Shown in pieces: positions 20,732 through 62,900 of a stretch of 64,000 nucleotides of DNA. The DNA is from an uncultured Gammaproteobacteria bacterium (GTDB lineage Bacteria; Patescibacteriota; Patescibacteriia; UBA9934; CAMTUG01). Both the position numbers and the translations under genes were made by a program. Below the pieces are notes generated by a model, which made no database searches, was not told the DNA's origin, and worked only from the letters and a program-made list of their open reading frames with translations. The stretch covers positions 3,128-67,127 of the forward strand of contig CAZPQJ010000007.1 of NCBI GenBank assembly GCA_964588955.1. Direction: 5' to 3'. Within the stretch, counting starts at the first letter, position 1; each line of letters starts with the position of its first letter.

Positions 20732-20797
20732 GGGACACGGACGGGGCTAATGTTGCTCCGCAGAGCAGAACAGCCGACCAACGGTTCGAGCGACGAG
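20732..20797. repeat. Truncated (left-half) copy of element A
   Basis: gggacacggacggggctaatgttgctccgcagagcagaacagccgaccaacggttcgagcgacg matches the element A left arm. It is preceded by three ggcgaacggg tandem repeats. Confidence 0.65.
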
Positions 20798-43847: not shown

Positions 43848-45635
43848 ATGATCCACATCTTTCGTAAATCGCTGGAAATCGCTTCACAGCCAGGCAAATT
43901 GGTGAGCCGACCGCTGCAAAAAATTTTTCACCACCACTACGCGGAAAAGCGGTTTGCCCGCACGTTGTTTGTGGTGGATATTGTGGTGCTTGTTAGCATC
44001 GCTGTTTCCGTGGGACTTATTTTAGCCTTTACGGTTTTCCGACCAGCAAAAATTGTTAATCTTGTGCATGTAGACGCGACCGTGGCGCCAAGCGATGTTG
44101 TTTCCGGAGGATTATCGACACTCATCTTCCGCTACGAAAACACGTCGAGCGAGGAGTTGCGTTTCGCGCGCCTCAATCTAGGCTTCCCTGCCCATTTTGA
44201 ACAAACAGAAGCCCCGGCGGATCTCACGGAAGTCGCTCCACAAACCTACGACCTTGGGAGCATCGCCCCAGGAGCCAACGGATCGATCAAACTCTCCGGA
44301 GTCATGTTTGGCGACGTGGGTGGCGATCAAGTTTTTCAAAGCACCTTGAGTTTTGTTTATGGTCCGAACGACCGCACCGCCACCAAGTTCAGCGAGCACG
44401 TTTTTCATCCGTCGCATTCAACCTTGGCTCTTGAACTCACCCTCCCCGATCGCGTGGTACAAGGCCAGCAAGCGCAAGGAAAGATCACTTACAAAAACAC
44501 CGGCACGGTAGACTTTCCACAAATCCAAATCGAACCGATCTGGCCAGAAGGGTTCGTACTGGTGAGTAGTTCTCCGGCATTACTGGCCGAAGGCAATTCG
44601 TTCATACTCAACGGATTGCAAGCGGGTCAAGAAGGCACGATTTCGTTCGTTGGCCAAATGCCTCCCACAGAATCGGTCGACTTTATCTTCAACCCCAGCT
44701 TTACCTTTGGTGATGATTATTACACCCAAGATCGTCTGACGCAAAACGTCAAACTTCTTCCCTCACAAATAAAAACCACTACCACGTTCTCTCCTGAAAC
44801 GATTACGCCAGGGGGAACGATGGTGGTTACCGTCGCTTACGAACACATTGGCGAACTTCCCATCAACGACTTGGCGATCAATATCAACACGCTTAATCAG
44901 CCCCTCTTTCAAAAACCATCCTACGAAGTGTTGCAAACAGTGACAGCCGTACAACCGGGAGACATCGGGAGTGCCAGTATCACCGTGCGCTTTAATAGCA
45001 GCATTGACGCCAGAACAGTCAGTACGTACCAACAATTAAGCGCGCTCGTGAAAACCTACGTCAATTACACGCTAACCCAAGACGATCTTCCACCAGCGCA
45101 AATCAGTCTTCTTGGCGCATCCGACAGTTTGAACATCACCAGTCCTGTGGTGCTGGAATCGTTTGGACGCTACGCCTCGCCGCAAGGCGATCAGCTTGGG
45201 CGCGGACCATTGCCGCCGCTTGTTGGCGAAGAAACGAAGTATTGGGTGTTTATGACCATTCGTGGAACAACAAATGATTTAGAGAATCTCAAAATGGACG
45301 CGGACTTAGGTCCTGGAGTCACCTTCACCGGCAAACAAAGTGTTTCCTATGGAGAGAGCTTGAATTACAACACAACAGATCACTCGATCACCTGGACGAT
45401 TGGATCGCTTCCGCCGACGTTGGCACCCGGCAGTCAAATGGTTTCCGTGGCCTTCGAAGTAGCCATCACTCCAACCGCCGACATGATTGGCAAAACCCCA
45501 ACCCTGCTCGCTTCCCCGCTCGTCAGCGCCCGCGACACCTTTACGGGCACCTTCGTCAGCGCCCGCGGTAGCACCATCACGACAAACTTACCATACGATT
45601 CCATGGCCGCGGGACTCGGCGTGGTGGAGGAATAG
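43848..45635 (+). CDS. Hypothetical membrane-anchored extracellular protein
   Basis: 595-aa ORF with an N-terminal TM helix. The remainder is beta-rich and unassigned. Confidence 0.5.
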   Translation: MIHIFRKSLEIASQPGKLVSRPLQKIFHHHYAEKRFARTLFVVDIVVLVSIAVSVGLILAFTVFRPAKIVNLVHVDATVAPSDVVSGGLSTLIFRYENTSSEELRFARLNLGFPAHFEQTEAPADLTEVAPQTYDLGSIAPGANGSIKLSGVMFGDVGGDQVFQSTLSFVYGPNDRTATKFSEHVFHPSHSTLALELTLPDRVVQGQQAQGKITYKNTGTVDFPQIQIEPIWPEGFVLVSSSPALLAEGNSFILNGLQAGQEGTISFVGQMPPTESVDFIFNPSFTFGDDYYTQDRLTQNVKLLPSQIKTTTTFSPETITPGGTMVVTVAYEHIGELPINDLAININTLNQPLFQKPSYEVLQTVTAVQPGDIGSASITVRFNSSIDARTVSTYQQLSALVKTYVNYTLTQDDLPPAQISLLGASDSLNITSPVVLESFGRYASPQGDQLGRGPLPPLVGEETKYWVFMTIRGTTNDLENLKMDADLGPGVTFTGKQSVSYGESLNYNTTDHSITWTIGSLPPTLAPGSQMVSVAFEVAITPTADMIGKTPTLLASPLVSARDTFTGTFVSARGSTITTNLPYDSMAAGLGVVEE

Positions 45636-45649
45636 TAATTTGATAAAAT

Positions 45650-45689
45650 AAAAACATAGACGGGAGTCTCTACTCCCGTCTATGTTTTT
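45650..45689. terminator. Bidirectional intrinsic terminator between convergent genes
   Basis: aaaaacatagacgggagt-ctc-tactcccgtctatgttttt is a perfect 18-bp stem with A/T tracts on both sides. Confidence 0.75.
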
Positions 45690-45731: not shown

Positions 45732-46946
45732 CTACTTCTTCAACACTCGTTGATACGCCTCCATGATTTTTTGATAATGCACTTCCGGGGCGTAGAGCTG
45801 TTCTGCACGATGACGCCCCGCACGGCCAAGAGCGGTGGCGTAAACAGGATCTTCAGCCACACGCGCAATGGCTTGGCGCAATCCTTGTACATCTCCCGGT
45901 TCAAATAACAATCCCGTTTGCGCGTCAGCCACCACTTCTGGCAAGGCTCCGACACGACTAGCGATCACCGGTTTACCAAGCGCCATCGCCTCAACCGCGA
46001 CAAGTCCAAACACTTCATGCCACAATGACGGCACAATCACCGCTCGGGCGCCGCGCACCAAATCCCACAAGGCCTCCCCGCTCTGGTACCCCTCAAATGT
46101 TACGTTGTTCATTTTATCGCCTTCTATGTGCAGATGTTGCTCTTCTGGTCCTGTGCCGACGATCTTGCACGGTACCCCCGGCATCTCCTGCATGGCGCGC
46201 AATAACACATCTACCCCCTTCTCTTCCACCAATCGCCCGTAATACAACACGTAACCGCTATCTTGGTACCGCGGCGCTTCAGCCACAAGACTCGTAAACA
46301 ACGGCACTTGCGTAAAACGCGCGCGATCAAAGCCGGCGGCAACATACGTGTTTTCTACGTATTGCGACGAAGTTAAAAACTGGTCAATCGTACGCGAATA
46401 ACTTTGCCGCAAGCGATGAAGTTTAAAACTCAGCGCCTGAGCGAACGAAGCGCGGTAAGAGTCTTTGTGAAAACGAGAGAACGTAAGCGTAGCCAGCGAC
46501 TTATGCGCCAAGTTTTCCGATCCGCCATGACGCCACATCATGTAATTGGGCGCGATTAAATGATAATCATGCACGCTCATGACGATGGGAATTTTTTCTT
46601 GTTTTAAAACATCGAGCACCGACGGCGAGATTTGTCCGTAAACGTTATGCACGTGTGCAACATCGGGGCGCGTGCGCTGAATGAGTTCACGCATCTTCCG
46701 CGCCGCTTCAAACGAATAGAGCATGCGGGCAAACGTTCGCAACCCTTGCCAACCGCCACGCACTTCCCCCGTCTCCACCGGACTCACAAAATAACGATCG
46801 TAGATACTCGGCGCGTTTTTCGCGTCTTTCATGGCAAAAGGAATCACCTCGTGACCGTGTGCCGTTAACAAATCTGAGAGCTCCATCATGTAGCGATCCG
46901 CTCCCCCCTTGGGCCAATAATATTTGTTGATTTGGAGAATCTTCAT
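45732..46946 (-). CDS. Glycosyltransferase family 4
   Basis: The N-terminus reads MKILQINKYYWPKGGADRY. The C-domain reads EVFGLVAVEAMALGKPVIASRVGALPEVVADAQTGLLFEPGD. The start was chosen at MKILQ. Confidence 0.8.
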   Translation of the reverse strand: MKILQINKYYWPKGGADRYMMELSDLLTAHGHEVIPFAMKDAKNAPSIYDRYFVSPVETGEVRGGWQGLRTFARMLYSFEAARKMRELIQRTRPDVAHVHNVYGQISPSVLDVLKQEKIPIVMSVHDYHLIAPNYMMWRHGGSENLAHKSLATLTFSRFHKDSYRASFAQALSFKLHRLRQSYSRTIDQFLTSSQYVENTYVAAGFDRARFTQVPLFTSLVAEAPRYQDSGYVLYYGRLVEEKGVDVLLRAMQEMPGVPCKIVGTGPEEQHLHIEGDKMNNVTFEGYQSGEALWDLVRGARAVIVPSLWHEVFGLVAVEAMALGKPVIASRVGALPEVVADAQTGLLFEPGDVQGLRQAIARVAEDPVYATALGRAGRHRAEQLYAPEVHYQKIMEAYQRVLKK

Positions 46947-47617
46947 ACCATGGCGATCAAAACAGACGTAAACCCAAACAGGCGCTGACGGACGATTTTG
47001 ACACGCGCTTCTTTCGGAAACAAACGTCGCAGCGATCGAGCGGATAACAAGGTGAGTTTCCCTGGCGTTCCCTCGTGTTTGCGTCCGAGAAGTTGATAAA
47101 AAAGATTGCGCGCGTCGGTTGGCAGCCAATGCAAGAACGGGATCATGGTGTGGGATTCAATGGGGAACGATCGCGAAGGGGTAGTAAGAAACACCCGCTT
47201 GCCGACACGCAAACACTCTCGTACAAACGCTTCTTGCGATTTCGTATACCCCACATGCTCGATGACCGCGTTTGAAAACACCACATCGAACTGTTTGTCC
47301 GCAAACGGCAAATGCTTACCATCTCCCTGAACAACCGTTACGGCAGGATAACGTTTATGAAAAGCTGTAAGATCATCAACGCCAACAGCGGTGATTTTTT
47401 CTGGATGCTCATACCACTCTTCCAAAAAGTTTTCCGCTCGTTCGCCGCTGGCCGCTCCGGAAACACCGACATCTAAAATCGTGGTGGCAAACGTCGGCCG
47501 CATCTGCCGCAAAAACAATCGGAACTTGCGCTTACGCGATGTAATCGTTAGCCGATGGGTGAGTTTCCACACCAACCCGTTTGGCCACTGCCAGAGTGTT
47601 TGAGATAACCAGGACAT
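46943..47617 (-). CDS. Class I SAM-dependent methyltransferase
   Basis: Motif I reads ILDVGVSGAASG. Post-I D and VFSNAVIEHV follow. The start is uncertain: MSWLS was chosen, and the track start is 47686. Confidence 0.6.
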   Translation of the reverse strand: MSWLSQTLWQWPNGLVWKLTHRLTITSRKRKFRLFLRQMRPTFATTILDVGVSGAASGERAENFLEEWYEHPEKITAVGVDDLTAFHKRYPAVTVVQGDGKHLPFADKQFDVVFSNAVIEHVGYTKSQEAFVRECLRVGKRVFLTTPSRSFPIESHTMIPFLHWLPTDARNLFYQLLGRKHEGTPGKLTLLSARSLRRLFPKEARVKIVRQRLFGFTSVLIAMV

Positions 47618-49449: not shown

Positions 49450-51042
49450 CTACTTCCAGTAGGCGTTGATGTAGGCGCCGTCGTTGGCGCCCGTCTTGGA
49501 GCCGTCGCCGTCGTCATCGGTCGAAACCGGGACGGCGAAGAGCGGAGCCTCGTCGTCGCGGTAGAGGTTGCCCACCACCGCGAACTCGTAGACGCCGTCG
49601 CCATCCGTGTCGCCGATGTTGGCGGCCCCCCATTGGACCTCGGCCCCGTCGAAGTACTCGACCTGGAGCACTTCGAACCCCGTGGGGAACTCCATCGGCT
49701 CGGAGACGATCTCGGTGGTCAGCACCCCGAAGTCGGCAGTGGCGATCACGGTCCACTCGAGGGTGTCCCAGCTCCAGGACCAGATCTGCCCCCCGTAGAA
49801 GCCCTCAGGGAGCTCCCAGGTGACGATCGAGAGGCCGTCGTCGATCTCCGTGCCGGTGTCGGCGGTATCGGCGTCGACAGCCGTGTCGGAGTCCTCGGTC
49901 CCGACGCCCGTGCCCGCGGTGTCCGCCGCGGAGTCGATGCCGGTCTCGACGGACCCGGTGGCCGTGTCGACCGTGCCGGTGTCGGTGGCCGTGTCGGAGT
50001 CGACCGCGGTGTCGGCCTCGGCGGTGTCGCTGTCCGCGACCGCGCCGGAGTCCGAGTCGACGAGCACGATACCGGAATCGCTCCCGGTGTCCGTGTCGCT
50101 GTCGACGCCGGTGTCGATCGCGCCGGTGTCGGTGTCCTCGGGCAGACAGTCGTCGCCCTCGTCCACCTGGCCGTCGCAGTCGTTGTCGATCTTGTCGCAC
50201 TCCTCGACGGCGCTCGGGTTGATGGCCTCCGCGTTGTCGTCGCAGTCGATCGCGCCGCTGACGGTGGTGAAACCGTCGCCGTCACAGTCGTTGTCGACGC
50301 ACGGGTCTTCCTCCGCGGAATCCGCCGCGGTGTCGGTGTCCCCGGTGCCGCCGGAGTCGACGGTGCCGGAGTCTTCGGGCTCGGCGCCCGTGTCGACGAC
50401 CTCGCAGCCCTCGTCGACCAGCCCGTCGCAGTCGTCGTCCCGCTCGTTGGAGCAGGTCTCGACCGCACCGGGGTTGACCGACTTGTAGTCGTCGTCACAG
50501 TCGCCCGGGAGGCTCGCGTCGGCGCACTCGGCGCCTTCACAGAACCCGTCGCCGTCGTTGTCGTATTCGCCGACCACGGTGCCGCTGTCAGCGTCCGTGT
50601 CGGAATCGGTGTCGGTGTCCGCGTCCGAATCCGTGTCGGCATCCGTGTCCGAGTCCGCATCGGTGTCGCTGTCGGAATCCGAATCGGTGTCCGAGTCCGT
50701 GTCAGCGTCCGTGTCGGAATCGGTGTCGGTGTCCGCGTCGGAGTCGGTGTCCGTGTCCGCCTCGCCGGTATCGACACTGCCGCTGCCGGCCGTGTCGACG
50801 ATCTCGCCGGTGTCGGTGTCCGTGCCCGAGTCCGTGTTGGTGTCCACGATCCCCGAGTCTTCCCCGGAGTCCGTCTCGACCGTTCCCGTCTCGGTGTCCG
50901 CCGTGTCGACCGGGGCGCTGTCGCCCGTGTCGATCTCGCCCGTCTCCCCCTGCTCGACGCTGCCGGTGTCGGCGACATCGTAGTCGAGGTCGATCGGGTT
51001 GCTGTCGCAGCCGACGAGGATCAAGCTGATGATCAGGAACAT
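49450..51042 (-). CDS. Lipoprotein with acidic (DTD/DSD)n tract and MopE-like Asp/Cys-rich 'putative metal-binding' repeats
   Basis: The lipobox is LILVGC. It is followed by tandem DxDxDGDGxxxxxDCDDxxxxxxPGAxExCxxxDxDCDG-type units and a W-rich C-domain. GC is ~67%. Confidence 0.7.
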   Translation of the reverse strand: MFLIISLILVGCDSNPIDLDYDVADTGSVEQGETGEIDTGDSAPVDTADTETGTVETDSGEDSGIVDTNTDSGTDTDTGEIVDTAGSGSVDTGEADTDTDSDADTDTDSDTDADTDSDTDSDSDSDTDADSDTDADTDSDADTDTDSDTDADSGTVVGEYDNDGDGFCEGAECADASLPGDCDDDYKSVNPGAVETCSNERDDDCDGLVDEGCEVVDTGAEPEDSGTVDSGGTGDTDTAADSAEEDPCVDNDCDGDGFTTVSGAIDCDDNAEAINPSAVEECDKIDNDCDGQVDEGDDCLPEDTDTGAIDTGVDSDTDTGSDSGIVLVDSDSGAVADSDTAEADTAVDSDTATDTGTVDTATGSVETGIDSAADTAGTGVGTEDSDTAVDADTADTGTEIDDGLSIVTWELPEGFYGGQIWSWSWDTLEWTVIATADFGVLTTEIVSEPMEFPTGFEVLQVEYFDGAEVQWGAANIGDTDGDGVYEFAVVGNLYRDDEAPLFAVPVSTDDDGDGSKTGANDGAYINAYWK

Positions 51043-51339
51043 GTGGGTCTCCTTGCAGGCACTCTGGCCTGCCATGGGTTCACGCTTTCAGGAACGTCTC
51101 AAACGCACAAACGTGGATTGCGCTCGAGAAAAGGGAGGAGATTCGGCTCCTTTGTCCTAGTTCCGCAACGATTTACCATCATCACGAAACAGGAAAATAT
51201 AGCATAAAAATGGGGTTTTGTCAATGGTACATGGCCAATATTGGCCAAAAAATGCCATTAAACGCGAAGACGCCGCCCGAGGAGTGAACCTGGGCGGACG
51301 TCGTTGGAGGTCAGGGCCCGGTCGGGTTGGTAGAAGCGG

Positions 51340-52857
51340 CTAGGGGGCGGTGATCATGCGGGAGTAGTCGCCGTCGCCGTCGGGGTCGACCAGGGTGACG
51401 GAGTTGGGCACCCCGTCCGTGCTGGAGTGGATGCTGGCCGAGGCGTCGTCGGCGAGCGAGGTGCCGTCCGGGAAGTAGGCGTCGACGGTGGCGCTGTCGC
51501 TGCCGCCGAGGCACAGGTCCATGGTGAAGGCGAAGTACCAGGAGGTGCCGCCGAGGAAGCTACTCGAGACCGTCACCCCGACCACGCCTTCCGGGGACCA
51601 CTCGCCGCTGAGCGCCGAGCCACCCCCGGTGACTTCGGCCACGAACGAGTCGGGCTGGCCGTTGTTGCTGTTCAACTCGACCAGGAACTCGCACGGATCC
51701 TCGTCGACGCTACCGTCACAGTCGTTGTCGAGGCCGTCGCTGCCCTTGTCGGCGGCGCCGGGGTGGATGGTGTCGTCGGTGTCGTCGCAGTCGTCGTCGT
51801 TGTCGACGTAGTCGGAGGGAGCCGTGCAACTCGTGAAGGTGTCACTCGGGTCGCCGTAGCCGTCCTCGTCGCCGTCGTAGTAGCGGGTGACCTCGTCGAC
51901 CGCGCGGTCGTGGATGTCGCCGTCGCAGTCGTTGTCCACGCCGTCGGTGGCGCAGGTCTCCGGGGCGCCGGTGTAGGTGGCGGCGTCGTAGTCGTTGCAG
52001 TCGAGGGTGTTGTCGACGAAGCCACCGGGCGCCTCGCAGCCTTCGGTGGAGGAGCTGGCGTTGCCCTGGCCGTCGGCGTCGACGTCGGCGTAGAAGGGAC
52101 TCATCACCCCCTCGTCGACGCTCTCGTCACAGTTGTCGTCGACGCCGTTGCAGGACTCGGGGGCACCGGGGTAGATGGTGCCGTCGTCGTCGTTGCAGTC
52201 GTCGGCGTTGGCCGACCACCCGGGGAAGGCCTCGCAGGCGAGGATCGTCGACGCGTTGCTGCCGTAGGTGTCGCCGTCGGCGTCGATGTAGATGGTGGTG
52301 TAGAGACCCTCCTCGTCCGTGTCGACCCAGGTGTCCCAGGTGTCGCAGTCGTTGGGCTGACCGTCACAGACCTCCGGCGCGCCGGGGTAGATCCAGGCGT
52401 TGTCGTCGTCGCAGTCCCAATGGAACTCGCTCGGGTCGCCGTCACCGTCCTCATCGTAGTAGTCGTCGTCGGTGAGCTGCTCGTAGGCGTCGGAGAGCTC
52501 CCCGCCGTTGGCTGCCACGAACTCCTCGAGGGTGTCGATGTCGCAGGCCATGGCCACGCCGTTGCTGTCGTTGAAGCCGTCGCCGTCGCTGTCCATGGCC
52601 CAGATGTTGTCGACGTGGTAGGTGTCGGCGTCGTCGGCCGCGCCGTCGCAGTCGTTGTCGACTCCTCCGTCGCACAGCTCGACCGCCCCGGGGTGGATGT
52701 TGGGGTCGGCGTCATCGCAGTCCCCGCCGAGCTCGGTGTAGCTGTCTCCGTCGTCGTCGACGTAGTAGCCCTTCTCGGTCGAACCCGACTTGTCAGTGGG
52801 ATTGCGACCGGTACCGGCACAGGCCGCGAGGAGGAGGATGAGGGAAAGGTAGCGCAT
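51340..52857 (-). CDS. Lipoprotein with MopE-like Asp/Cys-rich repeats
   Basis: The lipobox is LLLAACAG. There are 5 or more DCDD..PGA.E.C.G.DNDCDG repeats. GC is high. Confidence 0.7.
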   Translation of the reverse strand: MRYLSLILLLAACAGTGRNPTDKSGSTEKGYYVDDDGDSYTELGGDCDDADPNIHPGAVELCDGGVDNDCDGAADDADTYHVDNIWAMDSDGDGFNDSNGVAMACDIDTLEEFVAANGGELSDAYEQLTDDDYYDEDGDGDPSEFHWDCDDDNAWIYPGAPEVCDGQPNDCDTWDTWVDTDEEGLYTTIYIDADGDTYGSNASTILACEAFPGWSANADDCNDDDGTIYPGAPESCNGVDDNCDESVDEGVMSPFYADVDADGQGNASSSTEGCEAPGGFVDNTLDCNDYDAATYTGAPETCATDGVDNDCDGDIHDRAVDEVTRYYDGDEDGYGDPSDTFTSCTAPSDYVDNDDDCDDTDDTIHPGAADKGSDGLDNDCDGSVDEDPCEFLVELNSNNGQPDSFVAEVTGGGSALSGEWSPEGVVGVTVSSSFLGGTSWYFAFTMDLCLGGSDSATVDAYFPDGTSLADDASASIHSSTDGVPNSVTLVDPDGDGDYSRMITAP

Positions 52858-52933
52858 CTCGATTGACTCCGTTGGGGTGATCTCCCTAAGAAAAGCACTT
52901 GGAAACCCAGTAACTTCCGCATGGGGAGATAGG

Positions 52934-52962
52934 GTTATACCCAGGAACTGTCAAATTGTCAA
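52934..52962 (-). promoter_or_regulatory. Candidate promoter (TTGACA-N17-TATAAC) for the 51340..52857 gene
   Basis: On the minus strand, ttgaca is at 52962..52957 and tataac at 52939..52934. Confidence 0.4.
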
Positions 52963-53018
52963 TATAATGAGGATCCCCTCAGGAAGAGCGCTTCCCGAGG
53001 GGATCTTGAGAAACCCGG

Positions 53019-54629
53019 TCAAAACTTGCCGTCACAGTCGTCGTCGTAGGCGTCGTCGGGCGCGTCGTAGGCGCCGGGGTGGGTGGAGTCGTTGCTGTCG
53101 TCGCAGTCGCCGTTGTGGTCGACGTAGCCTTCCGGACAGATTCCGTCCTTGGCGGCAATCCCGCCCACGGAGTCGCCGTAGCCGTCGTTGTCGGCGTCCG
53201 GGAAGCAGGCCACTTCGCAGACGTTGTCTTCGTCGATGACGCCGTCACCGTTGTTGTCGACGCCGTCGCACTCCTCGACGTCACTGCAGTCCGCGATCCC
53301 GTCGCTGTCGGCGTCGAAACCTTCGTCAACCTCATCATCGCAGTCGTCGTCGAGGCCGTTGCAGATCTCTTCCGCGTCGGGGTTGATCGCCGCGTCGGCA
53401 TCGTCACAGTCGCCGCTCTCCGCGATGTAGCCAGAGGGCGCGCTGCAGTTCTCGATGCTGTCGCGACTGTCACCGAAGCCGTCGTTGTCGCCATCGTAGT
53501 ACCAGGTGGTGGCTCCGGTGGCGTCGGACTCGTCGGTGGTGCCGTCGCAGTCGTTGTCCGCGCTGTCGCAGACCTCGCTCGCGCCGGGGTTGATCGTCGA
53601 ATCGCCGTCGTCGCAGTCGCCCTTGGCTTCGACGTAGCCGCTCGGGGCGGTGCAGGTCGTCTCGCTCTTGCGGGCGAGGCCGTACCCGTCGCTGTCCGCG
53701 TCGAGGTAGAACGTGGAAGTGCCCACGGCGCTGTCGGGATCGATCTCGCCATCGCAGTCGTCGTCGAGGCCGTTGCAGGTCTCGATCGCGTCCGGGTTCA
53801 CTTCCGCGCTCGTGTCGTCGCAGTCGCCCGCGTCCACCACGTAGCCCGAGGGCTCGTAGCAACTGACGACCGCGTCGCCCGGGTTGCCGAAGCTGTCACC
53901 GTCGTTGTCCGCGAACCAGGTCGGGGCACCGAAGGCGTCGCCCTCGTCGACGCTGCCATCGCAGTCGTTGTCGAGGCCGTCGCAGTACTCGGTAGCGCCC
54001 AGGTGCACGCCCACGTCGGCGTCGTTGCAGTCGTCGGCGTTCTCGACGTACTCCTCGGGCACGGAACAGGCCAGGGTGGAGGAACTCGCGTTCCCCTGCC
54101 CGTCGCCGTCCGCGTCTTCGTAGAACGTCAGCTCGACGCCTTCGTCGACGCCCCCGTCGCAGTCGTTGTCCGCACTGTCGCAGACTTCGCTCGCGCTCGG
54201 GTTGACGTCGCTGCGCGCGTCGTCGCAGTCGTTGGCGTTCACGACGTAGCTCGGGATCTCCACGCAGGTGGTGATCTCGATGCTGGCGTCGCCGTAGCCG
54301 TCGCCGTCGCCGTCGAAGTAGCGCGCGTCGCCATCGTCGCTCTCGCCATCGCAGTTGTCGTCCACGCCGTTGCCGCAGATCTCGGCCACGCCAGGGTTGA
54401 CGCTCGCGTTGTTGTCGTCGCAGTCGGCCTCAGCGCCGTAGCCGTCGCCGTCGTTGTCCGTGTCGACGACCCCACCGCTGTCGCTGTCGACGTTGGTGTC
54501 GCTGTCGTCGCCGCCGGTCTCGACGTTGCCGGTCTCTTCGACCGAATCGGCCGAGTCGACATCGTCCGAATCCCCGTTGTACGGGGGCAGGAACATGTCC
54601 ATGCAGGCACTCAAAAGGAGCAAGATCAC
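53019..54629 (-). CDS. Lipoprotein with MopE-like Asp/Cys-rich repeats
   Basis: The lipobox is LLLSAC. There are ~9 repeats of the form DADGDGxG....C.....YV....DCDD.....NPGA.E.C...DNDCDG. Confidence 0.7.
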   Translation of the reverse strand: MILLLLSACMDMFLPPYNGDSDDVDSADSVEETGNVETGGDDSDTNVDSDSGGVVDTDNDGDGYGAEADCDDNNASVNPGVAEICGNGVDDNCDGESDDGDARYFDGDGDGYGDASIEITTCVEIPSYVVNANDCDDARSDVNPSASEVCDSADNDCDGGVDEGVELTFYEDADGDGQGNASSSTLACSVPEEYVENADDCNDADVGVHLGATEYCDGLDNDCDGSVDEGDAFGAPTWFADNDGDSFGNPGDAVVSCYEPSGYVVDAGDCDDTSAEVNPDAIETCNGLDDDCDGEIDPDSAVGTSTFYLDADSDGYGLARKSETTCTAPSGYVEAKGDCDDGDSTINPGASEVCDSADNDCDGTTDESDATGATTWYYDGDNDGFGDSRDSIENCSAPSGYIAESGDCDDADAAINPDAEEICNGLDDDCDDEVDEGFDADSDGIADCSDVEECDGVDNNGDGVIDEDNVCEVACFPDADNDGYGDSVGGIAAKDGICPEGYVDHNGDCDDSNDSTHPGAYDAPDDAYDDDCDGKF

Positions 54630-54868
54630 GGGACCTCCAGGGTAGGATAATCTTCAAAACAGAGCAGGCCCCTATTTTGAAGATCGGTTGGGGAAAAGTG
54701 CTAATCGTTGCTTTTGGCCTGACTTATGCCCTTGTCAGTCCAAAAACACCTCTCAAATTAGCCTTGTTTTCCTTGTCCGCGAACTGTAGTTCTTATCACG
54801 ATAATCAAGAAACGTCAAGCAATTGCGCCTCCCCAGGGAGTACCCGGGGAGGCGCAAGCAGTCAGGGA

Positions 54869-56722
54869 CTAGCCGTCGATGATGCCGTCGCAGTCGTCGT
54901 CGAAGCCGTTGCAGGCGGCCTCAGGGGTGACACCATCGTCCCCCAGGCAGTCTTCGGCGCCCGGGTGAACCCCGGAGTCCTCGTCGCTGCAGTCGCCGTC
55001 GCAGACGGTGTAGCCATCGCCGTCCGCGTCAGTGGTGTCCGTATCCGGGTTGATACCGGCATCGTTATCGTCGCAGTCGTCGGCGTTGTCAACGTAACCT
55101 TCGGGCGCCACACAGGCGTCGTAGGTGACGCTCGCGTCGCCGAAGCCGTCGCCATCGGCGTCGGCGTAGAACGTGCTGGTGTCGATCGCGGAGTCTTCGT
55201 CCACGTCGCCGTCGCAGTCGTTGTCGACGCCGTCGCAGAGTTCGTCGGCGTCGGGGTTGATCAACGGATCCATGTCGTCGCACTCGGAGCACGCTGCGAA
55301 CCCATCGCCATCCGCGTCTTCGACCCCCACCGACCCATCGCAGTTGTAGTCGAGGCCAGCGTTACAGGCCTCGGGCGCGCCGGGGTAGTAGGCGGCATCG
55401 CTGTCGTCGCAGTCGTCGACGTTGTCGACGTAGCCCTCCGGCGCCACGCAAGCGTCGTAGGTGACGCTCGCGTCGCCGTAGCCGTCGCCGTCCGCATCGG
55501 CGTACCAGGTGCTCGCGTCGATCGCATCGTCCTCGTCCACGTCGCCATCGCAGTCGTTGTCGACCTCGTCGCAGAGCTCGTCGGCGTCGGGGTTGATGTC
55601 GACGTTGGAGTCGTCGCAGTCAGTGGTGGTTCGCGCGTAGCCAACGACGCTACCGCAGGAAATGATCGATCCAGAGGGATCGCTCGATCCGTAGCCATCG
55701 TCGTCAGCATCAAGGTAGAGCGGCACCGCGTCCAGCGCGGAGTACTCATCCGTCTCCCCGTCGCAGTCGTCGTCCTTGCCGTTGCAGTACTCGTCGGCGT
55801 CGGGGTAGATGGCTGCGTCGCTGTCGTTGCAGTCAACGTCGCTCGTGTAGCCGTCGCCGTCGAGATCGACAGGCGCGGTGTCGACGATCACGCCACTGTC
55901 ACCGGTGTCGGCCGTGTCGATCGTACCGGTGTCACCCGTGTCCGTGGTGTCGACGATCCCTCCGGTGTCGGTGTCGATCGCGGTGTCCACGGTGTCACCC
56001 GTGCCAGTGTCGCCGGTGTCGGCCGTGTCGACCGTACCGGTGTCGGTGTCCTCAAGCGGACAGATCTCGCCTTCGTCCACGTCGCCGTCGCAGTCGTTGT
56101 CCGCGCTGTCGCAGACTTCGGTGGCGCCGGGGTTGATGGCGTAGCTCGTGTCGTCACAGTCGTCCCCGTTGAAGACATACCCAATGGGGATGTCGCACTG
56201 CACCTGGATGGTCGAGGCGTCGCCGTAGCCGTCGTGATCCGCATCCTCGTACAAGGTGAACATGTCCTCGGCGGCGTTGTCGACATAGCCGTCGCAGTTG
56301 TCGTCGAGGTTGTTGCACGCCTCGAGCGCGCCGGGGTGAACGGCCGCGTCGGAGTCGTCGCAATCGTCGGACTCCAGCACCCAGGCTGCGCCATCGGAAG
56401 GCTGGCTGCAGCTTTCGTAGGCATCCTCGGTTTTGCCGTAGCCGTCGCCGTCGAGATCGAGGTACCAGGTACGTGTTCCCTCTTCGTCGACCTCGCCATC
56501 GCAGTCGTTGTCGACATCATCGCAGACTTCGGTGGCGTCCGGGTGGACGGCCGCATCGTTGTCGTCGCAGTCCTCGTCGGAACCGTAGCCGTCGCCGTCC
56601 GCGTCAAGCGCGGGCAGGCTGACGGAATCGTCAATCGCCGTCTCGTCGTTTCCGCCCTTCCCCGAGTCTTGCGGGAGGGGGCAGCCAGCGAGAAGAAACA
56701 GGAACAGGATGAAGGAACGCAT
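54869..56722 (-). CDS. Lipoprotein with MopE-like Asp/Cys-rich repeats
   Basis: The lipobox is LLAGC and the start is at MRSFILF. The C-terminus reads DCLGDDGVTPEAACNGFDDDCDG and is shared with the next gene. Confidence 0.7.
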   Translation of the reverse strand: MRSFILFLFLLAGCPLPQDSGKGGNDETAIDDSVSLPALDADGDGYGSDEDCDDNDAAVHPDATEVCDDVDNDCDGEVDEEGTRTWYLDLDGDGYGKTEDAYESCSQPSDGAAWVLESDDCDDSDAAVHPGALEACNNLDDNCDGYVDNAAEDMFTLYEDADHDGYGDASTIQVQCDIPIGYVFNGDDCDDTSYAINPGATEVCDSADNDCDGDVDEGEICPLEDTDTGTVDTADTGDTGTGDTVDTAIDTDTGGIVDTTDTGDTGTIDTADTGDSGVIVDTAPVDLDGDGYTSDVDCNDSDAAIYPDADEYCNGKDDDCDGETDEYSALDAVPLYLDADDDGYGSSDPSGSIISCGSVVGYARTTTDCDDSNVDINPDADELCDEVDNDCDGDVDEDDAIDASTWYADADGDGYGDASVTYDACVAPEGYVDNVDDCDDSDAAYYPGAPEACNAGLDYNCDGSVGVEDADGDGFAACSECDDMDPLINPDADELCDGVDNDCDGDVDEDSAIDTSTFYADADGDGFGDASVTYDACVAPEGYVDNADDCDDNDAGINPDTDTTDADGDGYTVCDGDCSDEDSGVHPGAEDCLGDDGVTPEAACNGFDDDCDGIIDG

Positions 56723-56870
56723 CGTTTTCTCCGGTCTTGGTGGGTGGGTCATACGGCTCTTTTGGTTTAGAGCCGACAAAGAAACCTACACGTTAAAGAC
56801 CAAAAAGTCAAGGGTTAAGACGTCATTACGCCTCCCCAGGGAGTACCCGGGGAGGCGTAAAAGTCAGGGA

Positions 56871-57473
56871 CTAGCCGTCCTTCTTGCCGTCACAATCGTC
56901 GTCGATGCCGTTGCAGCCTGCCTGCGGGGTGACCCCGTCATCGGCCAGGCAATCTTCTGCGCCCGGGTACATGCCGTTGTCCGCGTCGTTACAATCGCCG
57001 GCGCAAGTCGTGTAGCCATCGCCGTCGCTGTCGAAGCCTTCATCAACGCCGCCGTCGCAGTCGTCGTCGAGGCCGTCGCAGATCTCCATGGCGTTCGGGT
57101 TGATGACCGAGGAGGTGTCGTCACAGTCGGTGTTGTCGACCACGTAGCCCGCGACTTCCTCGCAGGAGGTGACCATCGCGCCCGCGTCCCCGAAGCCGTC
57201 GGCGTCGAGGTCGAGGTAGTAGAGGGTGGCGTCCGTGGCCGCGTTGTCCACTTGGCCGTCGCAGTTGTCGTCGAAGCCGTTGCAGACTTCTTCTGCCCCG
57301 GGGTAGACGCTCGCGTTGTCATCGTCACAGTCGTCGCCGAACACGAACCCGTCGTGGTCGCTGTCGATCTGATCGACGCCCGCTGTGGAATCGACCACTT
57401 CCGACGCCGTGTCGACATCGTTGAGTTGGATCGACGCAGAGGAACAGGCCAGCAAGAAGATAATCAAGGACAT
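56871..57473 (-). CDS. Small lipoprotein with MopE-like repeats (paralog of 54869..56722)
   Basis: The lipobox is LLACSS. The C-terminus reads DCLADDGVTPQAGCNGIDDDCDG. A ~50-nt 3' region including a terminator hairpin is shared with 54826..54877. Confidence 0.7.
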   Translation of the reverse strand: MSLIIFLLACSSASIQLNDVDTASEVVDSTAGVDQIDSDHDGFVFGDDCDDDNASVYPGAEEVCNGFDDNCDGQVDNAATDATLYYLDLDADGFGDAGAMVTSCEEVAGYVVDNTDCDDTSSVINPNAMEICDGLDDDCDGGVDEGFDSDGDGYTTCAGDCNDADNGMYPGAEDCLADDGVTPQAGCNGIDDDCDGKKDG

Positions 57474-57719
57474 GGATGATCTCCGGTAGAGATATGGATG
57501 CCATTTGCAGGTCTCTTGTAATCAAGAGCCAACAAAGAAACCTACACGCCGGAAGCCGAAAGGTCAAGGGTGGTAATACGTGGATTTTCAAAAAACGCCA
57601 GCTGCAAGGCGCGGGGAAGCCGGCGAAGGAGCCGTATCTAAACATACGGCGACAAGACGGCGGGGCCCCGCAACACAGCAGATGGCGGAATTTTGGAAAT
57701 CCATAATCCAAAATATGAA

Positions 57720-57757
57720 GCGCCCCTGAAGAAGAGAGAGCTTCCTTCAGGGGCGCA
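57720..57757 (-). terminator. Terminator hairpin (CCCCTGAAG palindrome) after the 57824 gene
   Basis: gcgcccctgaag-aagagagagcttc-cttcaggggcgc is followed on the sense strand by a T-rich tract. Confidence 0.55.
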
Positions 57758-57823
57758 AAGAGTTTCTTCGTCGCGCCCCCTTGGGAAGATTCCTCTTCTT
57801 CAGGGGCGCCTCGTTGTGCCGGG

Positions 57824-59158
57824 CTAGTAGCGCGTGGACCAGATCCAGTCACCGATGATGTAGGCGATCAACTCGCCCCCGTCTTCGACACCCGACTCCT
57901 TCGAGTAGGTGTAGTAGACCTCGGAGACGCCGGACCCCGAGGAGTCCGTGCAGACCCAGGAGATTTCTCCCCGGATCTCCACGTCGTCGGTGCCCTCGCC
58001 GGTCGACTCGACCGAGAAGTTGACGCCGTCGCCGTTGACGCAACCCGCGTTGATGCGGGCGGCCTCACCGGACTCCATCGTGTACACCTCGGAGATGGTG
58101 TCGGTGCTCGACGCGGTCGTGCCCAGGGACGAATCCCAGGACCAGCCAACGCTCGTCGCGACCTCCGCCTCGGTGTACATGGCCGCGCACTCCTCGGGCG
58201 AGACCCAGGTGAACGTACAGGTGTACGTCTCCGAGCCCGAGCCCGTGTCGCCGGTGTCGGTCGTGTCCTCGATGCAGGCGGCGGGGTTGCCCTCGCCGTC
58301 GTCACCGCACACCTTCCCGGCGGACGCGCAGTCGTAGGACTCGACCGCGGTGTGCTCCTCGTTGCAGTAGTACGTCACATCCCCGACGCACTTGGGGTAC
58401 TCGGAGCAGTCGATGCCCGACCCAGTGTCGCCGGTGTCCTCGCAGGCGTCGCCCTCGTCCACGCTGCCGTCGCAGTCGTTGTCGATCCCGTCGCACTTCT
58501 CGGTGGCGCCGGGGTTGACCTCGGGGTTGGCGTCGTCGCAGTCGACATCGTCGTAGCCGTCGTCGTCCGCATCGTCGTCGGCACAGGCGTCACCTTCGTC
58601 GGAGTGGCCATCACAGTCGTCGTCGAAGCCGTTGCAGGTCTCGGTGGCGCTGGGGTTGATGGCCCAGTTCCCGTCGTCGCAATCGCCTTCGTCCTCGGTG
58701 TAGCCGTCGCCGTCCGCGTCGTCGTCGGTGTCGCAGTCCTCGTCGATCGAGCCGTCGCAGTCGTTGTCCACGCCGTTGCCGCAGATCTCGGACGCGCCGG
58801 GGTAGACGCTGGCGTCGCTGTCATTGCAGTCGACACCTTCGCCGTAGCCGTCGTTGTCGACGTCCGTGTCGGTCTCGCAGACTTCATCGACGTCGCCGTC
58901 GCAGTCGTCGTCGAGGCCGTTGCACTTCTCGGTCGCGCCGGGGTAGATGGCGGAGGAGGTGTCGTCGCAGTCAACGTCGTCGCCGTAGCCGTCGCCGTCG
59001 GCATCGACCGGACCGGTGTCCGTGTCGGTGTCGCCGGTCTCGGCCGTCTCGCCGGTCTCCGCGGTCTCGTGGGAGTCCGCGGTGTCGACCGAGCCGGTGT
59101 CTCCGACGTCGGTACGGATGTTGTTGGCAAGCCCGCAGGCCATCAGGGTGATCAACAT
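57824..59158 (-). CDS. Lipoprotein with MopE-like repeats and a Cys-rich C-terminal domain
   Basis: The lipobox is LMACG and the start was chosen at MLITLMACG. There are 6 repeats, followed by a C-domain rich in C/W/Y. Confidence 0.65.
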   Translation of the reverse strand: MLITLMACGLANNIRTDVGDTGSVDTADSHETAETGETAETGDTDTDTGPVDADGDGYGDDVDCDDTSSAIYPGATEKCNGLDDDCDGDVDEVCETDTDVDNDGYGEGVDCNDSDASVYPGASEICGNGVDNDCDGSIDEDCDTDDDADGDGYTEDEGDCDDGNWAINPSATETCNGFDDDCDGHSDEGDACADDDADDDGYDDVDCDDANPEVNPGATEKCDGIDNDCDGSVDEGDACEDTGDTGSGIDCSEYPKCVGDVTYYCNEEHTAVESYDCASAGKVCGDDGEGNPAACIEDTTDTGDTGSGSETYTCTFTWVSPEECAAMYTEAEVATSVGWSWDSSLGTTASSTDTISEVYTMESGEAARINAGCVNGDGVNFSVESTGEGTDDVEIRGEISWVCTDSSGSGVSEVYYTYSKESGVEDGGELIAYIIGDWIWSTRY

Positions 59159-59194
59159 GGGGTGATACTCCGCGGCTTCAAGCCGCGCTCGCAC

Positions 59195-59432
59195 TGTTAC
59201 GGGAACCGGAAACTCACACAGGATTGTGCGTCCGTCGTCGTTGTCCAGGAATTGAACCTTTCGGACGGACGGAAGTTGGGGAACAGGATTGGGAGATAAA
59301 GATGGAGAAAGAGGGAGAAAAATGGATATTGGGAAAAAATTCTTTTCCCTTTCTCCTATCTCCTATTTTCTCCTACTTTTTCTCTATCCACCCAATTCCA
59401 CAACTTCCATCCGCCTATACAGATTCAATCTC
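59195..59432. repeat. Upstream module copy 1 (~240 bp): conserved 5' leader hairpin plus GGAGAAA-rich palindrome, directly upstream of the 57824..59158 gene
   Basis: It runs ggaaccggaaactcacacaggattgtgcg-tccgtcgtcgttgtcc...gaacctttcggacggacggaagttgggg, then ggagataaagatggagaaagagggagaaaaatggatattggg...ttcttttccctttctcctatctcc, then ccacaacttccatccgcc. It matches 61069..61292. Confidence 0.7.
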
Positions 59433-59534
59433 AGGTAACTGATCTTGTAAAGAACCCTCGCAGACCACGAACGTTTCATGATCTCTGAGAGTGGGTCCTC
59501 GGACTGTGTGCCGAGAACCCATCGAACGTCGAAC

Positions 59535-61028
59535 CTACTCCTCCTCGGACTCGGTCTGCTTGGCGCGGGCGGCGTCGGCTTCGGCCTTGGCTTGCGCCTG
59601 GGCTTCCAGCCGCGCCCTCTTCTGGTCGGCGAACTCGAGGCGATCACTGCCGACGATCGCCATCTTCAAGGAGAAGATCGCGCCGACACCCGCCGTGTCA
59701 TCGGTCCGCTCGTTGTGCTCCAAGGTGATGATCTGGACCCCCGTGTTGTAGGTGACCTGACCGGCCGCCTCGAACGCGAAGTTCCCGACCCGGAAGTCCC
59801 CGAAGCCGCTGAGGCCATAGAGGACTCCGCCGACCTGGGACTCCATGAGGGCGTCCTGGTCGAACAGACCGACCTGGACACCGTGCAGACCGATCACCCC
59901 GCCGATGCCGATCTCGTTGATCGGCTTCGCGTAGACACTGAACGTGCCCGCGTAGCCCAACGAGTCACCGGACAGGATCGCGCTGTAGCCACCGAACGCG
60001 GCACGGGCGTAGCGGTGATCGACGCCGAGGTGCGCTACCAGACCCGGGCCGATGAGCCCGGTGTCGAGGACGACACCCCCACCGATGCCGAGGGTGGGCC
60101 AGAACGCGCGGTTGTGCGCGTCCTTGAGCTCGGTGGTACGGACGTAGGCGGTGTCCGCGGTCTTGCGGACGGCGTCCACGATCTCGAGGGATCCCTTGAT
60201 CTCCTCGATCCGCAGGGAGTTCTCGGTCTGGAGCCCATCGATCTTCCCCTCGGCCGTCGCGAGACGACCGTTGGTCTTCACGAGCTCGCTCTGCTCGGCC
60301 TTGCCGTCGAGGCGCTTGCCGAGCAAGATCGCCGCGGCGAAGGACGAGTCCGTGGCGGAGGAGCAGTACACACTGTCTCCGCTCACCACGGTCCAGACCC
60401 CTTCGGCTCGGTTGATGGTGTACCCGTCCGGGACGCTCTGCGTGGCGGCGTAGGCGAACCCCACCGTCTCGCAGAAATCGACCCGCTGCATCTCCGCGAG
60501 GATCTTGGAGTGCTCGTCCACGGTGGCCGAGACCTTCTTCACCTCGCCGGCGGCCCAGTTGGCGGTGCGCTTCGCGTCCATCGCATCGACGACGTCCCGG
60601 TTGCCCGAGTCGGCGTCGATCGCCACCTCACACTTGAGGACGTCGGAGTCGAAGTTGAAGACGAAGCCGTCCTTCTCGCACACCGGCCGTCCGGCCTTGT
60701 CGCTCCACACCAGGCCAGAGACGGAACCGAAGTTCCCTCCGCCGATGATGGGGCGCTCGAGGTCGGACTTCCGCCAGTGGCGGATGGTGCCGTGGACGCG
60801 GTAGGACAACTCGACGGCGGCCCGCAGGCTCACCGGCTCGTCGGCCTTGGCGTCGCAGTCCGTCTTCGGGCACTCGTCCTTCTTCGGCTCGGCCTTCTTC
60901 TCGTCCGCGGCGACCGTGGTCGTCGTGGTCGTGGCCGTCGTGGCGGTGGTGGTGGCCGGGGTGGTCTTCGCGCTGGGGTTGGCGCCCGCAAACGCGGGAG
61001 CGGAAACGAGAACCAGGGAGATCAACAT
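59535..61028 (-). CDS. Secreted protein with a Thr-rich linker and a Gly-rich beta-strand (porin/OMP beta-barrel-like) C-region
   Basis: A signal peptide reads MLISLVLVSAPAFAGA. (T/A)n and CPKTDCD follow. Alternating Gly/hydrophobic segments and an Ala/Glu-rich helical tail follow. GC is high. Confidence 0.55.
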   Translation of the reverse strand: MLISLVLVSAPAFAGANPSAKTTPATTTATTATTTTTTVAADEKKAEPKKDECPKTDCDAKADEPVSLRAAVELSYRVHGTIRHWRKSDLERPIIGGGNFGSVSGLVWSDKAGRPVCEKDGFVFNFDSDVLKCEVAIDADSGNRDVVDAMDAKRTANWAAGEVKKVSATVDEHSKILAEMQRVDFCETVGFAYAATQSVPDGYTINRAEGVWTVVSGDSVYCSSATDSSFAAAILLGKRLDGKAEQSELVKTNGRLATAEGKIDGLQTENSLRIEEIKGSLEIVDAVRKTADTAYVRTTELKDAHNRAFWPTLGIGGGVVLDTGLIGPGLVAHLGVDHRYARAAFGGYSAILSGDSLGYAGTFSVYAKPINEIGIGGVIGLHGVQVGLFDQDALMESQVGGVLYGLSGFGDFRVGNFAFEAAGQVTYNTGVQIITLEHNERTDDTAGVGAIFSLKMAIVGSDRLEFADQKRARLEAQAQAKAEADAARAKQTESEEE

Positions 61029-61068
61029 GTCAGACTCCGTTGCGGCATTCTAGCCGCGTTGAGCACTC

Positions 61069-61292
61069 TTGGAACCGGGAAACTCACGCAGAATTGCGCG
61101 CCCGTCCGTTGTGTCCTTTTGGGTATTGAACCTTTCGGACGGACGGAAGTCGGGGTGGGAAGATAAAATAGGAGAAATGAGGAGAAAGAAGGATATTGGG
61201 GAAGACTTTCTCCCTTTCTCCTATTTTCTCCATCTTTTTCTTTTTATCCTTCCAAGATCCACAACTTCCATCCGCCACGATCAATTCAATCC
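61069..61292. repeat. Upstream module copy 2 (matches 59195..59432), directly upstream of the 59535..61028 gene
   Basis: The layout is the same three parts. The GGAGAAA palindrome is ataggagaaatgaggagaaagaaggatattggggaagactttctccctttctcctattttctcc. Confidence 0.7.
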
Positions 61293-61330: not shown

Positions 61331-61725
61331 TAAGGTTCGACATAGCTCAGAAACGAGGAGGAGGCGTTCTGAACGACATCAAACCGTATCGAAGGTCATT
61401 TTTAGGGACAATTCGCAGATCTTGCGAACGCCTAAAAGTAGCAGGAAATTGGGTTTTTGTCAAGGGGTTTGTGGAGAAAATGGGAAAAATAGGAGAAATA
61501 AGGAGAAAATGGGAGAAAAATACCAAAACAAAACAACGTCCGCTTTATCGACCTGAGAATCACCTGTCGTGATGAGGAGGAGGCATCATGACCGTGCGGT
61601 CTCAGGCCGGCAAAAGGGGCGTTGTGGCGGGCACCTTACCAAAGCCCCGAGGGGGCGTCAAGAAGGTTATAAACAATAGAAAAATAGGAGAAATAAGGAG
61701 AAAGTTGGAGAAAAGTGACAAAAGC
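61331..61725. repeat. Tandem ~190-bp duplication (two units) ending in GGAGAAA-rich tracts
   Basis: Unit 1 runs gaggaggaggcg ... gtcaagggg ... aaaataggagaaataaggagaaaatgggagaaaa. Unit 2 runs gaggaggaggca ... gtcaagaagg ... aaaataggagaaataaggagaaagttggagaaaa. The shared DNA is read in different frames by the two small track ORFs. It is therefore judged non-coding. Confidence 0.5.
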
Positions 61726-62090
61726 TATTTTTTCGAAGCCAAATCTTTTGTCGAGAAAATATATCTATTTAACAACACTTGAACCGCCCGTAATTGTGCG
61801 CGCAACAACTCTGCGTCTATAATCTGAACTTTTCCCCGCTCCAATAAGAGGTCCGTCCAATGCAGTGCTTCAATGAGAGATCCACGCGCATTGTAGTTAA
61901 ACTTGTTGCGATCAAGAAAATGAAATCTTCCAAACCCCTCCGCGATATTCGCGCCAATGGAATCAATAGCAGAAATCCACTGATCCCCAATCACTTTCTT
62001 TGTTTGCCAATCGAATTTATCATAAAGAAGCCAGGCGCATTTTGATATTTGCCTGGCCTCACGGTAAACAGCGAGATCATATAAATCCAT
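61725..62090 (-). CDS. Four-helix-bundle protein (23S rRNA-intervening-sequence protein family)
   Basis: 121-aa ORF with the family-typical IANNIAEG-like core (GANIAEGFGR) and length. Confidence 0.7.
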   Translation of the reverse strand: MDLYDLAVYREARQISKCAWLLYDKFDWQTKKVIGDQWISAIDSIGANIAEGFGRFHFLDRNKFNYNARGSLIEALHWTDLLLERGKVQIIDAELLRAQLRAVQVLLNRYIFSTKDLASKK

Positions 62091-62132
62091 ATCCCCTTTC
62101 TCTTTTCTCCTTCTTTCTCCTACTTTTTCCCT

Positions 62133-62765: not shown

Positions 62766-62900
62766 AGAAAGATAAAAATAAAAAGTAGGAGAAAAAAGGA
62801 GAAAGGAGAAAGTGGGATAAACGGAGAAAATAGGATATTGGGGAAAGGACTTTCCCCTTTCTCATACTTTATCTTTTCTCCATCTTTTTTTTATCTCTTT
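62765..62900. repeat. GGAGAAA-rich palindromic element (copy outside the high-GC island)
   Basis: The sequence is gtaggagaaaaaaggagaaaggagaaagtgggataaacggagaaaataggatattggggaaaggactttcccctttctcatactttatcttttctcc. Confidence 0.6.

Follow-up and report, generated by a model that had tools for sequence, protein, structure and literature searches.

Why should two neighboring genes whose coding bodies have diverged widely still begin and end almost alike? The question is raised by genes A and B, two genes for putative repeat lipoproteins that lie within an island of same-strand genes in contig CAZPQJ010000007.1 (GCA_964588955.1). We analyzed a window of 64,000 nucleotides (nt) of this contig, and all positions are 1-based within that window. 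The host is an uncultured bacterium of the Patescibacteria, or candidate phyla radiation (CPR), with a genome of about 50% guanine plus cytosine (GC). An initial annotation had explained the shared ends by recent tandem duplication. We propose instead, with a probability of about 0.7, that A and B are old head-to-tail duplicates of one promoter-to-hairpin unit and that their cis-elements have been kept by function. The features on which the argument turns are:

54869..56722, minus strand: gene A, an open reading frame (ORF) of 617 amino acids (aa); stop codon at 54869-54871 and GGAG at 56732-56729, 6 nt 5' of the ATG, as read from the sequence
56871..57473, minus strand: gene B, a 200-aa ORF paralogous to A; GGAG at 57484-57481
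56823..56825, minus strand: head-to-tail junction, where unit B ends (56825) and unit A starts (56823), from local alignments of three junctions
54822..55024, minus strand: 3' shared block, copy A, with the last ~52 codons, stop codon, 3' untranslated region (UTR) and hairpin, from blastn and alignment
56825..57026, minus strand: 3' shared block, copy B, the counterpart of copy A, from blastn and alignment
54823..54857, minus strand: hairpin T_A, core 54826-54854, stem base one G:C and two U:A pairs; -34.9 kcal/mol, z = -5.8
56826..56860, minus strand: hairpin T_B, core 56829-56857, stem base A:U where T_A has G:C; -32.5 kcal/mol, z = -6.0
56769..56823, minus strand: promoter-like box of gene A, with a -35 element TTGACT (56811-56806), a 17-nt spacer and a -10 element TAGGTT (56788-56783), followed by a conserved TCTTTGTCGGCTCT
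57525..57581, minus strand: promoter-like box of gene B, with a -35 element TTGACC (57567-57562) and a -10 element TAGGTT (57544-57539)

Genes A and B form a head-to-tail pair

In the spacer between B and A, a single base separates the end of homology to the 3' block, at 56825, from the start of homology to the 5' block, at 56823. Since the two homologies abut at this point, A and B represent two head-to-tail copies of a single promoter-to-hairpin unit, at 57581-56825 and 56823-54822, each of which holds a candidate promoter, a 5' UTR, a coding sequence, a 3' UTR and a hairpin. An independent Logan assembly (L001, run SRR16481186) is 100% identical to the window over 56087-58485, a match that takes in gene B with the flanks on either side and the B/A junction, so that neither the gene nor the junction is an artefact of assembly. 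The protein encoded by B likewise has an identical entry in NCBI and in Logan. Protein B aligns colinearly with residues 1-218 of A and then with A's C-terminal module, and the two proteins are separated by an indel of ~340 aa in which the surplus of A consists of a Thr/Asp linker and additional repeats.

The shared 3' block ends in a stable stem-loop

Protein A ends in PGAEDCLGDDGVTPEAACNGFDDDCDGIIDG and protein B in PGAEDCLADDGVTPQAGCNGIDDDCDGKKDG, each directly before the stop codon, and alignment of the last 52 codons bears out the common C-terminus noted in the initial annotation, with 38/52 aa identical. Among 241 retrieved homologs the variant PGAEDCLxDDGVTPxAxCNGxDDDCDG is confined to A and B; it carries a 9-10-aa insertion (DCLxDDGVTPxAx), and both proteins end four residues past the motif. 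At the nucleotide level the 3' blocks are 81.8% identical over 203 nt by blastn, as compared with 66-75% for other MopE-repeat pairs of these genes. Within this block lies the stretch that had been reported after each stop, now delimited as an exact 29-nt core (CGCCTCCCCAGGGAGTACCCGGGGAGGCG) at the two positions given above; it occurs exactly twice in the 64-kb window and had no match in 100 shuffles. A further 18 nt across the stop codon are identical between the copies.

This stretch had been described as a perfect hairpin. In the sense (minus-strand) RNA the stem is indeed unbroken over 15-17 bp, although it includes one G.U wobble, and on the plus strand the wobble position leaves a bulged A, with an A.C mismatch expected in antisense RNA. 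None of 200 shuffles folded as stably as T_A or T_B. The sense RNA of these two hairpins is only 1.1-1.4 kcal/mol stabler than the antisense RNA, and of 12 island hairpins taken from three genomes, 10 show the same direction, which modestly favors a role for the hairpin as RNA in gene orientation. The stem-loop lies 9-17 nt after the stop codon and ends 4-14 nt before the -35 element of the next gene. From the stop to the end of the hairpin (~46 nt) the copies differ by three substitutions and one indel, and two of the three substitutions form a compensatory stem pair, G:C -> A:U.

Strong GC-rich hairpins follow the stop codons of all seven island genes, and a TTGAC-N17-TAnnnT-like site precedes each of their starts, while most operon-packed genes elsewhere in the window have no such 3' hairpin. 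A search of Rfam returned nothing at the gathering score, the only matches being sub-threshold, microRNA-like ones to long hairpins elsewhere in the island.

Each gene is preceded by a promoter-like box

The upstream box reported earlier is present before both genes, its sequence AGCCRACAAAGAAACCTACACG lying at 56771-56792 and 57527-57548 (we refer to it by the form TAGGTTTCTTTGTYGGCTCT); the interval originally given for the second box, 57536..57580, was ~9 nt off and should read 57527..57570. The sense-strand reading TTGACY-N17-TAGGTT holds for both copies. The -35 element matches TTGACA at 5/6 positions, the spacer is 17 nt long and the -10 element matches TATAAT at 3/6 (T1, A2, T6), so the boxes fall short of the 9-of-12 rule of the promoter tool. 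When the two copies are compared, the -35 block CCCTTGAC is identical at 8/8 positions and the block that runs from CGTG across TAGGTT to +15 at 23/24, while the intervening spacer agrees at only 10/16. Nearly invariant -35 and -10/+1 blocks around a diverged spacer are what selection on a promoter would be expected to leave. Downstream of them A and B have in common ACCGGAGA, with its GGAG 6-7 nt 5' of each ATG. TTGACN-N17-TANNNT sites fall in intergenic DNA or at its edge, and the pattern recurs in relatives. From this arrangement it is plausible that each gene has its own promoter and terminator, as had been suggested.

We also considered a conserved stem-loop in the 5' UTR (GGCUCU...AGAGCC) and dropped it, as the two copies fold differently. 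The 350-nt spacer 5' of B (57474-57823, minus strand) has features of its own. It contains a nested double hairpin at 57715-57812 (-71 kcal/mol) and a canonical terminator (stem plus T6) at 57612-57595 directly before the B promoter box, and its portion at ~57640-57700 aligns with positions 9690-9760 of a related locus described below (L083). This spacer may encode a separate small transcript.

Synonymous sites give no sign of a recent event

If the duplication were recent, the blocks would be alike simply because little time has elapsed. The identity of the hairpin core and of the bases across the stop codon fits such a history, as does the clean duplication junction. The adjoining coding sequence does not. 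Over the last 52 codons, where the proteins are 73% identical, the proportion of synonymous differences (pS) is 0.49, with synonymous and nonsynonymous divergence of dS ~0.8 and dN ~0.18. At identical residues the codon is the same in 25/38 cases (0.66), compared with 0.77 among 13 non-orthologous MopE motifs of the island, a background that is as high as this because of strong codon bias. Since A and B do not exceed that background, their synonymous sites are saturated and carry no signal of recency. The gene bodies are furthermore only 33-58% identical and differ by the long indel, and the promoter spacer has diverged between flanks that have not. Thus the duplication is tandem, as had been claimed, but judged by its sequence it is not recent, and we regard recent duplication as very improbable.

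The conserved ends stand out against this divergence. The binomial probability of so few changes in the 3' UTR is 9e-10 at the synonymous rate (p = 0.49) and 0.004 at the coding rate (p = 0.23). The finding of conserved cis-elements beside saturated synonymous sites makes selection on these elements likelier than recency.

An orthologous spacer in a relative places the hairpin before a species split

The ribonucleotide reductase of the window shares 82% and 77% identity with its counterparts in two Patescibacteria/Parcubacteria metagenome-assembled genomes and 64-68% with those of Candidatus Uhrbacteria. Two homologs of A led to syntenic loci, L083 (GCA_947084965.1) and L084 (Hainich groundwater). 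The spacer 3' of gene A is orthologous to L084 795-1006, and in this alignment the hairpin and the candidate promoter of the next gene are conserved block by block: the L084 spacer keeps the 3' arm of the hairpin (GGGGAGGCGC), the -35 element (CTTGAC), CGTGATAAGAAC, a 17-nt block of the 5' UTR and CCTGGAG. The hairpin is therefore older than the species split, and the conserved spacer gives phylogenetic support to the promoter assigned to the neighboring gene. By blastn the A/B hairpin and promoter box had no match in L083 or L084, the L084 hairpin being visible only when the whole spacers are aligned, and the A/B promoter box has no counterpart in either locus.

This ortholog bears on the idea that the hairpin is a mobile or dispersed repeat (repetitive extragenic palindromic, miniature inverted-repeat transposable element-like or integron attC-like) that was inserted behind A and behind B in separate events. 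The presence of a palindrome rich in GC between genes invites the idea, and the window does hold other dispersed hairpin repeats (15646-15824, 20724-20795 and 33197-33390) as well as AGGAGAAA elements. The homology of the hairpin, however, continues unbroken into the coding sequence and stops exactly at the duplication junction, and L084 has an ortholog in the corresponding position. There are just two copies in 64 kb, and a search that allowed a degenerate loop found none in a collection of genomes from 185,579 species. The sole match in JGI metagenomes (L002) is another hairpin, which follows a porin-like gene, and we rejected it as unrelated. The tested ORFs of the window contained no integrase or recombinase domain, and no attC cores (RYYYAAC / GTTRRRY) were seen around the hairpins by eye, no pattern search having been made. 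An integron cassette reading is rejected on the same absence of an integrase domain and because the genes carry promoter-like sites of their own. We give independent insertion almost no credence.

Concerted evolution has to be weighed more carefully. Here an old duplication would have been followed by recent short-tract gene conversion of the 3' UTR and hairpin, and perhaps of the -10/+1 block. What speaks for conversion, and hence against preservation by function, is that loop, wobble and stem sequence are identical beyond structural need; the L084 ortholog differs in its loop and 5' arm, and a locus so filled with repeats could support recombination. Yet the supposed tract still has three substitutions and one indel, among them the compensatory pair, and identity shows no sharp boundary, falling from 88% over the last 95 nt of the 3' block to 77% over the preceding 108 nt. 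At the 5' end, moreover, conservation coincides exactly with the -35 and -10/+1 blocks, with a diverged spacer in between, which suggests selection rather than conversion. On this evidence we consider gene conversion unlikely, though it keeps appreciable weight.

Several further observations weigh against functional conservation or against the roles assigned to the elements. The orthologous hairpin in L084 has diverged by ~25-30%, and our divergence statistics are based on just 52 codons and ~46 non-coding bases. The resemblance of TAGGTT to TATAAT is limited to T1, A2 and T6, and the A/B boxes have no TGn extension, which is present in most other candidate promoters of the lineage. There is no U-tract 3' of the A or B stem, where the tails read AAUUGCUUGACG and UGACGUCUUAAC, and a terminator consensus scan reports neither hairpin. 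Finally, the signal peptide of B is atypically short. For want of a U-tract the A/B hairpin is not a canonical intrinsic terminator, and from its sequence it is better called terminator-like, or a 3'-end stabilizer. A canonical bidirectional terminator (AAAAACATAGACGGGAGT…ACTCCCGTCTATGTTTTT) is found at 45650-45689 between the convergent genes 43848-45635 (plus strand) and 45732-47129 (minus strand), so this genome does use U-tract terminators elsewhere.

With these points counted, old duplication with functionally kept ends is the account that we prefer, and it would run as follows. The ancestral unit would have started with a promoter of the sigma-70 type and a 5' UTR carrying GGAG as ribosome-binding site, continued with a coding sequence for a MopE-motif lipoprotein with its C-terminal module, and ended in a strong 3' stem-loop. 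Illegitimate recombination would have duplicated this unit head to tail in the present lineage once that lineage had diverged from its nearest sequenced relatives, and later the coding bodies would have diverged and changed in repeat number. The -35 element, the -10/+1 block, the ribosome-binding site and the hairpin with its short 3' UTR would have stayed nearly identical, and the C-terminal module close, most likely because they are functional. Each gene would then be transcribed separately from its own promoter, and the stem-loop, as sense RNA, would end or stabilize the transcript and shield the promoter just downstream. The products would be calcium-binding, disulfide-rich proteins, either attached to the surface of an episymbiotic CPR cell or secreted there.

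Genes A and B encode MopE-type repeat proteins

Both proteins pass the Pfam gathering threshold (27 bits) for PF11617, the Cu-binding_MopE family of 'putative metal-binding motif' proteins, gene A with 239.9 bits over seven stretches (E = 1.5e-72) and gene B with 88.3 bits over two; NCBIfam gave no match for either. Protein A is composed of a signal (MRSFILFLFLLAGC), seven stretches of the PF11617 MopE motif, a linker rich in Thr and Asp and the C-terminal module specific to A and B, while protein B has the signal MSLIIFLLAC, two MopE motifs and the same C-terminal module. In bacterial lipoproteins (SPase II substrates) the expected N-terminal signal combines a basic n-region with a hydrophobic h-region and a lipobox of the form [LVI][ASTVI][GAS]C. 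As read from the sequence, the N-terminus of A looks like a canonical lipoprotein signal with lipobox, and B has a lipobox-like LLAC with just 9 aa before the Cys and no K/R.

Asp makes up ~22-25% and Cys 6% of the two proteins. This composition, together with their DxDxDG motifs, makes it probable that they are extracellular repeats that bind calcium and are rich in disulfides. The AlphaFold model of B (predicted local distance difference test score, pLDDT, 85) has almost no regular secondary structure, and a fold search of this model against the PDB gave no significant match. The sole solved relative is the N-terminus of MopE (residues 1-48, PDB 2VOV), a weak match (E = 7e-4) that is also the one link of the motif to Cu or Ca binding.

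Gene A also contains an internal tandem duplication, 55057-55261 versus 55393-55597, with a period of 336 nt and 87% identity over 205 nt, which indicates that repeat expansion is ongoing within the gene.

The pair lies in a variable island of high GC3

The wider setting of the pair is:

49450..61028, minus strand: island of seven same-strand genes, six for PF11617 repeat proteins and one ORFan

The island lies between GNVR and four-helix-bundle genes on one side and Wzy_C, methyltransferase and GT4 genes on the other. The same flanks are found in L083 and L084, with GNVR and four-helix-bundle genes on side one and, on side two, Wzy_C, methyltransferase, GT4, a DUF11-like gene and GHL15/FG-GAP. 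These flanks are 64-81% identical to their counterparts, whereas the island genes are only 37-52% identical and vary in number and size.

Island genes have a GC content at third codon positions (GC3) of 0.85-0.93, with C at 0.66 and A at 0.025 of these positions, compared with a GC3 of about 0.55 in the rest of the window (range 0.48-0.63, with 0.69 in one gene). The spacers of the island are 44-54% GC. The syntenic genes in L083 (4340-15363) and L084 (3-4976) reach a GC3 of 0.89-0.98, against 0.52-0.63 outside them, and an IS200 transposase inserted at the syntenic locus has 0.39. As high GC3 is common to the syntenic genes and not to the inserted transposase, it appears to be a gene-specific and long-standing property rather than the mark of a recent insertion. 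A simple recent transfer of the island from a GC-rich donor is thus unlikely, given the GC content of the spacers, the native-type promoters and the same high GC3 at the syntenic locus of two other species. Possible causes of the high GC3 are very high expression, biased gene conversion specific to the locus and repeated capture of genes from a GC-rich host. We searched the literature for PF11617 and for Patescibacteria codon usage, with no relevant result.

Long antisense ORFs of 480-700 aa on the plus strand extend across each island gene (54677-56770, 53079-54650, 51427-52866, 49633-51207 and 59478-61166). We take them as a by-product and not as genes, because TTA, CTA and TCA codons are nearly absent from the coding strand. 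The ORFan (59535-61028, minus strand) encodes a 497-aa protein that carries a signal peptide, is rich in Gly over its C-terminal half and has a charged tail; it had no Pfam or NCBIfam match and no homolog among 5.8 billion proteins. Its positional counterpart in L083 is 484 aa long and has no detectable similarity to it.

One broader interpretation, which we regard as doubtful, is that the A/B pair is a visible step in the evolution of a conserved 'surface-protein nursery' in Uhrbacteria-like CPR bacteria. The site between GNVR and Wzy_C may be fixed, with autonomous modules of MopE/TSP3 type being duplicated, expanded and replaced there faster than the flanks change, and the resident genes, including the ORFan, may be held at an extreme use of C-ending codons (GC3 0.85-0.98), unlike other genes of the genome, in at least three species. 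If this were true, the hairpins would be insulators that let modules shuffle without disturbing their neighbors.

Comparison with known systems

PF11617 takes its name from the N-terminus of Methylococcus capsulatus MopE (PDB 2VOV). Proteins of this MopE type occur in Myxococcota, Bdellovibrionota and many uncultured bacteria, with thousands of homologs. A and B resemble them in the ~69-aa unit DxDxDGxG ... C ... P.GYV ... DCDD.D..V.PGA.E.CDG.D.DCDG and in being putative secreted or surface proteins, and differ in their Patescibacteria host and in the C-terminal variant private to the pair.

The vlp, vsp and vsa loci of Mycoplasma are clusters of variable surface lipoprotein genes. By analogy, the A/B locus likewise has tandem, repeat-rich paralogous lipoprotein genes with conserved 5' regions in a small-genome, host-dependent bacterium, and it evolves fast relative to its flanks. 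In contrast to the Mycoplasma clusters, the A/B promoter spacer lacks a homopolymer tract, invertible segments and a recombinase are absent, and the protein family is unrelated; we found no evidence of phase variation at the A/B locus. The A/B hairpins, for their part, resemble intrinsic terminators in being GC-rich stem-loops after a stop codon, stabler in sense RNA and directly before the next promoter, but differ in the missing U-tract; other island hairpins carry an interrupted tail (UCUUCGCGUUUAA) that is absent from the A and B copies.

Taken alone, the A/B pair is a textbook case of tandem duplication in which the regulatory ends are conserved, that is, ordinary gene-family evolution within an unusual, fast-evolving and very GC-rich surface-protein locus. 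It supplies candidate promoter, ribosome-binding and transcript-end signals for a Patescibacteria lineage, and it points to constraint on a strong stem-loop without a U-tract at gene ends. Such signals are, to our knowledge, essentially uncharacterized in Patescibacteria lineages. The surrounding hypervariable, high-GC3 locus is a more unusual object than the pair itself, and a locus so variable and so aberrant in composition is a reasonable place to seek proteins that attach episymbionts to their hosts.

Other repeats and conserved blocks in the window

Genes 57824-59194 and 59535-61028 encode unrelated proteins and yet share an upstream leader of ~240 nt (59201-59430 and 61071-61291; 75-94% identity). 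This leader contains a long hairpin whose arms consist of 10-nt-periodic AGGAGAAA/TTTCTCCT repeats and which is itself flanked by CGGATGGAAGTTG and CAACTTCCGTCCG. Repeats of the TTTCTCCTATTTT type occur 20 times compared with 1.1 expected by chance, at 61160-61250, 61475-61520, 61680-61715, 62094-62132, 62782-62870 and 30470-30492, and they flank the four-helix-bundle gene 61725-62090. That gene is PF05635-like solely by its 58% identity to two PF05635 genes of L083, which flank GNVR there.

A non-coding block of 39 nt (…GCACGGTCATGATGCCTCCTCCTCATCACGAC…) at ~61560-61598 on the minus strand is 97% identical to L083 3812-3850, while the ribonucleotide reductases of the two genomes are just 77% identical. 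A TTGACG-N17-TAAGGT site precedes this block, which may represent a small RNA or a leader. The dispersed intergenic repeat of ~180 nt at 15646-15824, 20724-20795 and 33197-33390, cited above for its hairpins, has 85-93% identity among copies and a long internal inverted repeat (CAGAACAGCCGACCAACGGTTCGAGC / GCTCGAACCGTTGGGTTGTTCTG), and it has a CGGACGGA-type motif in common with the island leaders.

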